A DNA stretch of 10,590 nt from a virus (lineage: Duplodnaviria > Heunggongvirae > Uroviricota > Caudoviricetes). The notes beneath the pieces were generated by a model that was given only the letters and a program-made list of their open reading frames with translations, had not been told where the DNA came from and searched no databases. Of this stretch, positions 3,941 through 4,832 are shown piece after piece. Position numbers and translations under genes: made by a program. The stretch lies in the IMG/VR virus record IMGVR_UViG_2617270966_000006, positions 1-10,590 of that record. The stretch is one strand, 5' to 3'. Position 1 is the first letter of the stretch. Each line of letters begins with the position of its first letter.

Positions 3941-4141
3941 ATGTATCGAAACATACGGTGCCGACATTGTAACAAGCTACTGGCACGAGCCAGCTTCAGT
4001 TATCTGGAAGTCAAATGTCCGCGCTGTAAAACCCTCAATCAAATCACATCTCAGAGCGCCACAGAGCACCCCACATACACAAGGAAATCCTGTCGTGGGG
4101 AACAGAAAGCAAGTTACATCCCGTATCATCAGCACGCCTGA
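3941..4141 (+). CDS. com: Com-like zinc-finger translational activator (Mu Com homologue), 66 aa
   Basis: Translation [55 protein letters not shown]... aligns with Mu Com as recalled (MKSIRCKNCNKLLFKADSFDHIEIRCPRCKRH...EHPTEK), including the Cys-x2-Cys...Cys-x2-Cys zinc finger. AGGAGG (3925-3930) lies 10 nt before ATG 3941. The TTG 3896 start in the ORF track is probably an N-terminal over-extension. The 3' end overlaps the next ORF, as com overlaps mom in Mu. Confidence 0.7.
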
Positions 4142-4832
4142 ACTTATTCACTATAACGACAATATCGTCGGTTATGGCTCCCGTGAGTTACGGGTTGAGA
4201 CAATAAGTTGCTGGCTGGCCCGGCTGGTCGTCGTCAATAAACATTACAGCCATCGTTTCGTAAATAATTCCTACCTTCATCTGGGCATATTTTCAGAACG
4301 GGAGCTGGTTGGCGTAATGCAATGGGGTTATGCCCTTAATCCAAACAATGGTGCACGCGTCGTAACTGGCACGCAGAACCGCGAATATATGGAGCTTAAC
4401 CGGTTATGGCTGCATGACTGTATGCCGAGAAACTCCGAATCAAGGGCAATCAGTTACGCGCTCAAACTAATCAGACAACTTTATCCGCAGGTGCAGTGGG
4501 TTCAGTCGTTTGCAGATGAGCGTTGTGGCTGTCTTGGTGTCGTGTACCAGGCAAGCAATTTTGATTATGTAGGCAGTCATGAAACAACATTCTATGAACT
4601 TGATGGCGAGTGGTATCACGAGATTTGCAAGAATGCAATCAAACGAGGAGGACAGCGAGGTGAACATCTGCGGGCTAATATCGACAGAGCCAGTGTTCAT
4701 AAATTCCGTCAGTTTCGTTACATCCGGTTTCTGGACAAGAGAGCCAGAAAACGCCTTAACACAAAGCTATTCAAAGTCCAGCCTTACCCAAAACCACAAA
4801 CAGTTAAAACTGGTTTGAAAGAGAGTGAATGA
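4095..4832 (+). CDS. mom: Mom-like DNA modification protein (putative adenine-modifying anti-restriction enzyme); start codon uncertain
   Basis: Open frame 3900-4832 overlaps the 3' end of com in a different frame. Proposed start GTG 4095 with AAGGA (4081-4085) 9 nt upstream gives 245 aa, close to Mu Mom (231 aa); ATG 3933 is an alternative. Called from synteny with a Com homologue and size; the Mom sequence itself was not recalled. Confidence 0.5.

Follow-up and report, generated by a model that had tools for sequence, protein, structure and literature searches.

A Mu-type com-mom operon beside a truncated lambdoid gene J as the probable right end of a Mu-like prophage

Transposition of phage Mu duplicates 5 bp of the target DNA, and the right terminus of the phage reads CA. 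The Mom enzyme of Mu transfers glycine from Gly-tRNA(Gly) to the N6 of adenine in double-stranded DNA, and the product rearranges to a carbamoylmethyl adduct (Silva et al. 2026, PMC13219725). Nine residues (W48, H58, Y59, R111, S124, D149, R151, Y159 and W181, in the 241-aa numbering of the Mu protein) and an HTH-like insertion were found in the same study to matter for the activity of Mu Mom. The translation of mom is controlled by Com, which binds the sequence CC(N)2-3GAG in a small hairpin beside a ‘translation inhibition structure’ that has the GUG start codon of mom in its stem (PMC6483171), and transcription at the mom promoter of Mu (Pmom) is controlled by Dam methylation and OxyR (PMC3378877). 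Mu-like phages of the Sp18-like type were reported to lie inside other mobile elements, including Stx phages, in six of ten cases (Nakamura et al. 2023, PMC10132054).

The window analyzed here is one whole contig (JNPY01000106.1, 10,590 bp) from the draft assembly GCA_000703545.1, and the features found in it are collected in Table 1. The com-mom region resembles that of Mu (AF083977; PDB 8BV8) in its gene order, in the overlap of com with the start of mom, in the GUG hairpin next to a CC(N)3GAG motif, in the paired GATC sites upstream and in the position of the operon, which is the last before the right transposon end. It differs from Mu in the neighbour of the operon. The upstream neighbour in Mu is gin, whereas in the window a block of 3.4 kb (531-3684), which Mu does not have, is placed between the Mu-like tail-fibre/gin region and com. 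The genes in this block encode a 684-aa SASA-esterase and DUF6645 protein, a DUF1378 protein (60 aa) and a DUF826 protein (84 aa); the block also contains, on the minus strand, an ORF of 97 aa that gave no family match. We take the esterase, DUF1378 and DUF826 genes to resemble the nanS-p-type late-region genes of Stx and lambdoid phages.

Table 1. Features annotated in the 10,590-bp window.
Feature	Position	Strand	Basis
IS1 end (InsA fragment) at the contig edge	1..306	-	called gene 1-252 (-): PF03811 Zn_ribbon_InsA, PF12759 HTH_Tnp_IS1
Right-terminal 4.65 kb of an Sp18/JE86-type Mu-like prophage	308..4960	+	99.94% identity over 4653 nt to the JE86-ST05 prophage
Palindrome AATCGATCG-N7-CGATCGATT with two GATC (Dam) sites	3873..3897	.	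alignment to Mu: GATC sites 2 and 3 upstream of Pmom
Shine-Dalgarno AGGAGG for com	3925..3930	+	read from the sequence; 10 nt before ATG 3941; aligns with AAGGAGG before com in Mu
com, 66 aa, ATG start	3941..4141	+	PF10122 Zn_ribbon_Com; PHROG gpCom
Com RNA recognition motif match CCACAGAG	4059..4066	+	fits 5'-CC(N)2-3GAG-3' (PMC6483171); putative Com binding
Translation-inhibition hairpin	4069..4100	+	predicted fold; CCCCAC (4069-4074) pairs with GUGGGG (4095-4100)
mom, 245 aa, GTG start	4095..4832	+	PF25680; 78% identity to Mu Mom; PDB 8BV8
Artefactual 5' extension of the J-remnant ORF, 45 codons	4825..4960	+	frame runs through DNA of the Mu-like end
Right end (attR) of the Mu-like element, ending ...GCGCTATA	4833..4960	+	identity to other insertions stops at 4960
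3' part of the lambdoid tail-tip gene J	4961..6651	+	codon 575 to stop, 1137 codons in total

Both proteins of the operon were assigned by similarity to their families as well as to their Mu counterparts. Com matched the Pfam family PF10122 with an E value of 7.5e-13 and 48.2 bits (cut-off 22.9) and the PHROG family ‘gpCom control of modification’ with an E value of 2.9e-13, and it is residue-for-residue identical to RefSeq WP_014334043.1. It shares 44% identity with Mu Com, with the C-terminal half diverging, and its zinc cysteines (C7, C10, C26 and C29) align with the four of Mu. Com is a CCCC zinc-finger protein and, by homology with Mu, would act as the translational activator of mom. The Mom protein matched the Pfam family PF25680 over the full model (positions 1-202 of 202, E value 7.8e-78, 261 bits, cut-off 27.1), PHROG 1384 (2.8e-83) and the crystal structure of Mu Mom (2.4e-123), and its alignment with Mu Mom contains no internal gaps after residue 8. 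It is residue-for-residue identical to WP_000528246.1, for which the newer RefSeq name is ‘tRNA(Gly)-dependent adenine aminoacyltransferase Mom’. None of the NCBIfam models matched either Com or Mom; RefSeq nonetheless gives these names to the identical proteins. The Pfam and PHROG matches lie well outside what chance would produce.

All nine residues that matter for the activity of Mu Mom are kept in the pairwise alignment, where they correspond, in the order given above, to W40, H50, Y51, R103, S116, D141, R143, Y151 and W173 of the window protein. The Mom-specific HTH-like insertion (Mu residues ~175-209) likewise aligns without gaps to the protein of the crystal structure. The homology points to a tRNA(Gly)-dependent adenine N6 aminoacyltransferase with a GNAT fold. 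A sequence-only reading of this DNA had proposed a Mu-type com/mom pair in which com overlaps the downstream ORF, and both parts of this proposal hold, with the overlap between com and the GTG start of mom at 4095 amounting to 47 nt. It had assigned the downstream protein by synteny only, to be checked by a profile search, and had counted the absence of any similarity to Mom, or a small protein failing to align with Com, as evidence against the pair. The profile search matched Mom along its entire family model and both similarities were found, so the assignment is now carried by sequence identity and not by gene order.

The elements which govern the translation of mom in Mu have clear counterparts in the window. 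The Com motif match ends 2 nt before the start-codon hairpin, and this spacing equals that of Mu, in which the motif reads CCUGCGAG. The loop of the hairpin holds the Shine-Dalgarno sequence of mom and the stem holds the GUG start, with the region 4055-4105 having a predicted folding energy of -14.3 kcal/mol (z -2.25). Mu folds into an equivalent CCCAC/GUGGG hairpin in the same register, and the outermost pair, which is U-A in Mu and C-G here, represents one compensatory change. The Com motif itself is presented by a short hairpin that is predicted to be weaker than its counterpart in Mu.

The region upstream of com (3846-3940) keeps two of the three GATC sites of Mu in the form of a perfect 9-bp palindrome, and this palindrome is invariant across three E. 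coli variants despite their varying flanks. By analogy with Mu, it may serve as a Dam/OxyR control site. The GATC pair and the Shine-Dalgarno sequence of com lie about 33 nt closer together than in Mu, and no alignable counterpart of the first GATC site, the C box, the T6 run or the -10 element of Mu was found upstream of com. A scan with the sigma-70 consensus gave no plus-strand promoter before com, and a 9-mer comparison of the com upstream region with the remaining sequence of the JE86 prophage did not reveal a late-promoter box common to both. One rather doubtful reading of this shorter spacing, in which no C box, T-run or -10 can be aligned, is that the promoter of com-mom overlaps the Dam-sensitive palindrome or uses another activator site.

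The DNA from 308 to 4960, which contains the esterase-DUF1378-DUF826 insert, com, mom and the right end, was found to be 99.3-99.9% identical to prophages of the Sp18 type such as those of JE86-ST05, AF39, JKHS016, S1-CAM-01-A and O157:H7 strains, with identical Com and Mom proteins and the same terminal sequence. Of 5426 complete E. coli genomes, 232 contain the DNA of com and mom. The JE86-ST05 prophage is a complete Mu-like element of 38,240 bp with genes for the Mu transposase (MuA), a MuB-type ATPase, Gam, an activator of the Mor/C family, Mu-type head genes and a contractile tail. The genes for MuA and MuB are also present in the AF39, JKHS016 and S1-CAM-01-A prophages, which together with that of JE86-ST05 are 99.9%-identical to the window, and these genes are located outside the span of this contig.

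Five insertions of the element were compared with the window. The genes interrupted are citF in JE86-ST05 (flanking repeat TTCG), dcyD in AF39 (TACA), a JAB-domain gene in JKHS016 (TAAG) and bcsA in S1-CAM-01-A (GACG), and com-mom is the last operon of the element in each of these four; the fifth insertion lies in an Stx1a phage (LC727895.1), with the repeat AGAG annotated in the record. In all five, the identity of the element stops at the same nucleotide (...AAATCGCCGCGCTATA), which corresponds to position 4960 of the window. Three direct (G/A)GTATCAAA repeats (4878-4886, 4913-4921 and 4935-4943) occur within the last 83 nt and are presumed from their sequence to be transposase-binding sites, and the motif TTTGATACC recurs 17 nt in from each terminus of the element, left and right.

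The Sp18-type elements are thus flanked by direct repeats of 4 bp. A target duplication of 5 bp, as in Mu, was considered and rejected as it fails in two of the four genomes whichever terminal base is reassigned, whereas a duplication of 4 bp fits all four as well as the GenBank annotation. The right terminus of the family reads ...TATA, that is TA as opposed to the CA of Mu, and the left end reads TGTAACC, or TATAACC in one genome. These repeats and termini are located at 4957-4964 in the window, at 10258-10265 in L001, 28236-28243 in L003, 11204-11208 and 43159-43163 in L008, 4969-4973 and 43396-43400 in L009, and 5431-5434 in L014 (LC727895.1). The combination of 4-bp duplications and a TA right terminus is unusual for Mu-type transposition.

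Homology to gene J at the DNA level starts at 4960/4961, directly at the terminus of the element. In the ORF 4825-6651, the first Pfam domain of J begins at residue 81, and the remnant contains the domains Ig_J, Ig_J_second, Phage_Tail_Tip and Ig_GpJ_C. An intact gpJ gene was found in strain 2009C-3133 (L005, 1279-4692), to which the J sequence of the window is 100% identical over the 341 nt beside the joint and 98.1% identical over 3.3 kb, with position 4960 of the window aligning with position 3001 of L005. The J remnant is followed by lom and then by a side tail fibre gene. The latter occupies 7385-10590 and continues past the end of the contig, and long alternative-frame ORFs overlap it on both strands (e.g., 7782-8792 on the plus and 7882-8631 on the minus strand); these look like by-products of a repetitive, GC-rich sequence and not like genes. 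At the opposite edge of the window, the IS1 end and the Mu-like DNA meet at 307/308, shortly before the esterase gene and at the point where the homology to the Mu-like prophage begins. None of the complete E. coli genomes shares the Mu-like/J junction of this contig, and what sets the contig apart from the Sp18-type prophages is only its insertion site in the lambdoid J gene together with the IS1 at 307/308.

The arrangement is very probably the result of the transposition of an Sp18-type Mu-like prophage into codon 575 of the J gene of a lambdoid prophage, with com-mom as the last operon of the incoming element, since the J homology starts exactly at the conserved terminal nucleotide of the element. 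The insertion in this strain is known from its right junction alone, as the contig contains neither the left end of the element nor the 5' part of J. The sequence-only reading had correctly placed the module next to a 5'-truncated J gene and had recognized a joint between Mu-like and lambda-like DNA. Its view that the module ends within an artefactual start of the J remnant also stands in respect of the overlap and the artefact; the overlap between the GTG at 4825 and the stop of mom is, however, 8 nt and not 7. This GTG and the first 45 codons of the apparent J ORF belong to the end of the transposon.

The same reading had offered, as one of two possibilities, a cargo module acquired by recombination. 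In such a scenario, recombination of the illegitimate or the homologous kind brought com-mom into a lambdoid prophage, removed the 5' half of J and gave rise to a hybrid phage, and the occurrence of Mom homologues outside the Mu-like phages, as in the Aeromonas phage pAEv1818 which carries a Q-type antiterminator gene and a Mom of 70% identity, lends it some weight. We nevertheless consider it very improbable. J is broken at exactly the nucleotide that forms the conserved terminus of the element, which was seen at five other unrelated insertion sites, the 128 nt following mom consist of transposon-end repeats, the 4.65 kb upstream are collinear with complete Mu-like prophages, and lambdoid DNA is absent to the left of the joint. 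The operon is instead found where it normally stands at the right end of a whole Mu-like prophage. A less simple history has a better claim, being possible though not likely: transposition of the Mu type would have been followed by an IS1-mediated deletion of everything to the left of 308, which would leave com-mom silent and orphaned from the C-type activator and the transposase. Consistent with this, the IS1 end meets the Mu-like DNA exactly at the contig edge, and decay is visible in other members of the prophage family, namely frameshifts in the JE86 prophage and rearranged or truncated genes in that of JKHS016. However, short-read assemblies break at any IS1, so that a simple insertion of IS1 into a complete prophage gives an identical contig, and the com and mom genes are intact and identical to the copies in complete prophages.

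Another alternative concerns the enzyme itself, which the sequence-only reading had described as longer than Mu Mom and possibly divergent. Its chemistry or its donor might then be unlike those of Mu Mom and a form of 299-310 aa might be the real product. The frame of mom is open from 3900 (310 aa), one gene caller picked the ATG at 3933 (299 aa), and the protein ends in a 12-residue C-terminal tail which Mu lacks. The open frame upstream of the GTG is, however, not conserved, as a stop lies 27 codons before the GTG in the O157:H7 copy, whereas 122 codons are open in CI5 and only 10 in Mu. Since its length differs among these copies, the reading frame beyond 245 aa is, judging from the alignments, an accident of an open frame, and the form of 299-310 aa was rejected. 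The ATG at 3933 is located only 2 nt after a Shine-Dalgarno sequence that is positioned for com, and the start within the hairpin is conserved with Mu. From this homologous GTG, which is also used by RefSeq, the protein starts with MGNRKQ, compared with MGKEKK in Mu, and the lengths are 245 aa against 231 aa, with the difference made up of two additional residues near the N-terminus and the tail. Given the 78% identity to Mu Mom and the conservation of all tested active-site residues and of the HTH-like insertion, a divergent enzyme appears hardly credible.

Under the preferred explanation, in which the Mu-like phage transposed into the resident lambdoid prophage at codon 575 of J, only the right 4.65 kb of the element would be on the contig, ending in com-mom and a transposon end of 128 nt. 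The left junction is predicted to read J...GTGAGTAT followed by TGTAACCAGG..., that is ...GCGTGAGTAT|T(G/A)TAACCAGG, with GTAT duplicated on both sides of the element and with its Mu-like left end reading TGTAACCAGGTGAATCATTTGATACC.... Among the species-representative genomes, a collection without the source genome, neither this left junction nor the known right one was found. By homology with Mu, com-mom would be transcribed late in the lytic cycle from an activator-dependent promoter that is restrained through the paired-GATC Dam/OxyR site. The hairpin would then lock the GUG start of mom at 4095 until the binding of Com to the CC-N3-GAG motif just upstream opens it for translation. The Mom protein would transfer glycine from Gly-tRNA(Gly) to the N6 of adenine in double-stranded DNA as its Mu homologue does, and the rearrangement of the product to N6-carbamoylmethyl-adenine would shield the phage DNA from restriction enzymes.

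Sp18-like elements inside lambdoid prophages have been described among the Mu-like phages found in Stx and other prophages (PMC10132054; LC727895.1, LC727881.1). The element in LC727895.1 has the same right-end sequence as the window and an annotated 4-bp duplication; it differs in the lambdoid site that is interrupted and in the gene after com, which encodes a C5 cytosine DNA methylase in place of Mom. In this element (L014, 4015-5266), a com gene of 98% identity is followed by the gene for a 350-aa methylase (PF00145, 2e-42), which begins with the same GTG GGG AAC codons as mom and is preceded by the same sequence. A different DNA-modification enzyme therefore appears to stand under the same Com-controlled start. 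Since the start hairpin of this sister element appears to drive a methylase, the comparison suggests a swappable slot for a ‘Com-gated toxic DNA-modification enzyme’ at the right end of these phages. The broader proposal, in which the Sp18-type com-mom operon is differently wired from that of Mu and the right end of these phages provides such a slot, is in our view rather doubtful. The Aeromonas phage pAEv1818 (L012, 680-1402) has its Mom homologue just downstream of Q with no com upstream, and Mom therefore also travels outside the Mu-like phages without the control of Com.

Earlier work has described the enzyme and its regulator as well as the phage family and the insertion of such phages into prophages, and both genes are already annotated in many E. 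coli genomes. The significance of the locus lies mainly in its correct annotation, in which the truncated J gene and its apparent start at 4825 are by-products of a Mu-like transposition and com and mom belong to the incoming phage. The lambdoid prophage of the strain would lose its functional tail-tip gene through the insertion. Should the remainder of the Mu-like phage be intact, the strain would also gain a phage able to hypermodify its own DNA against restriction.
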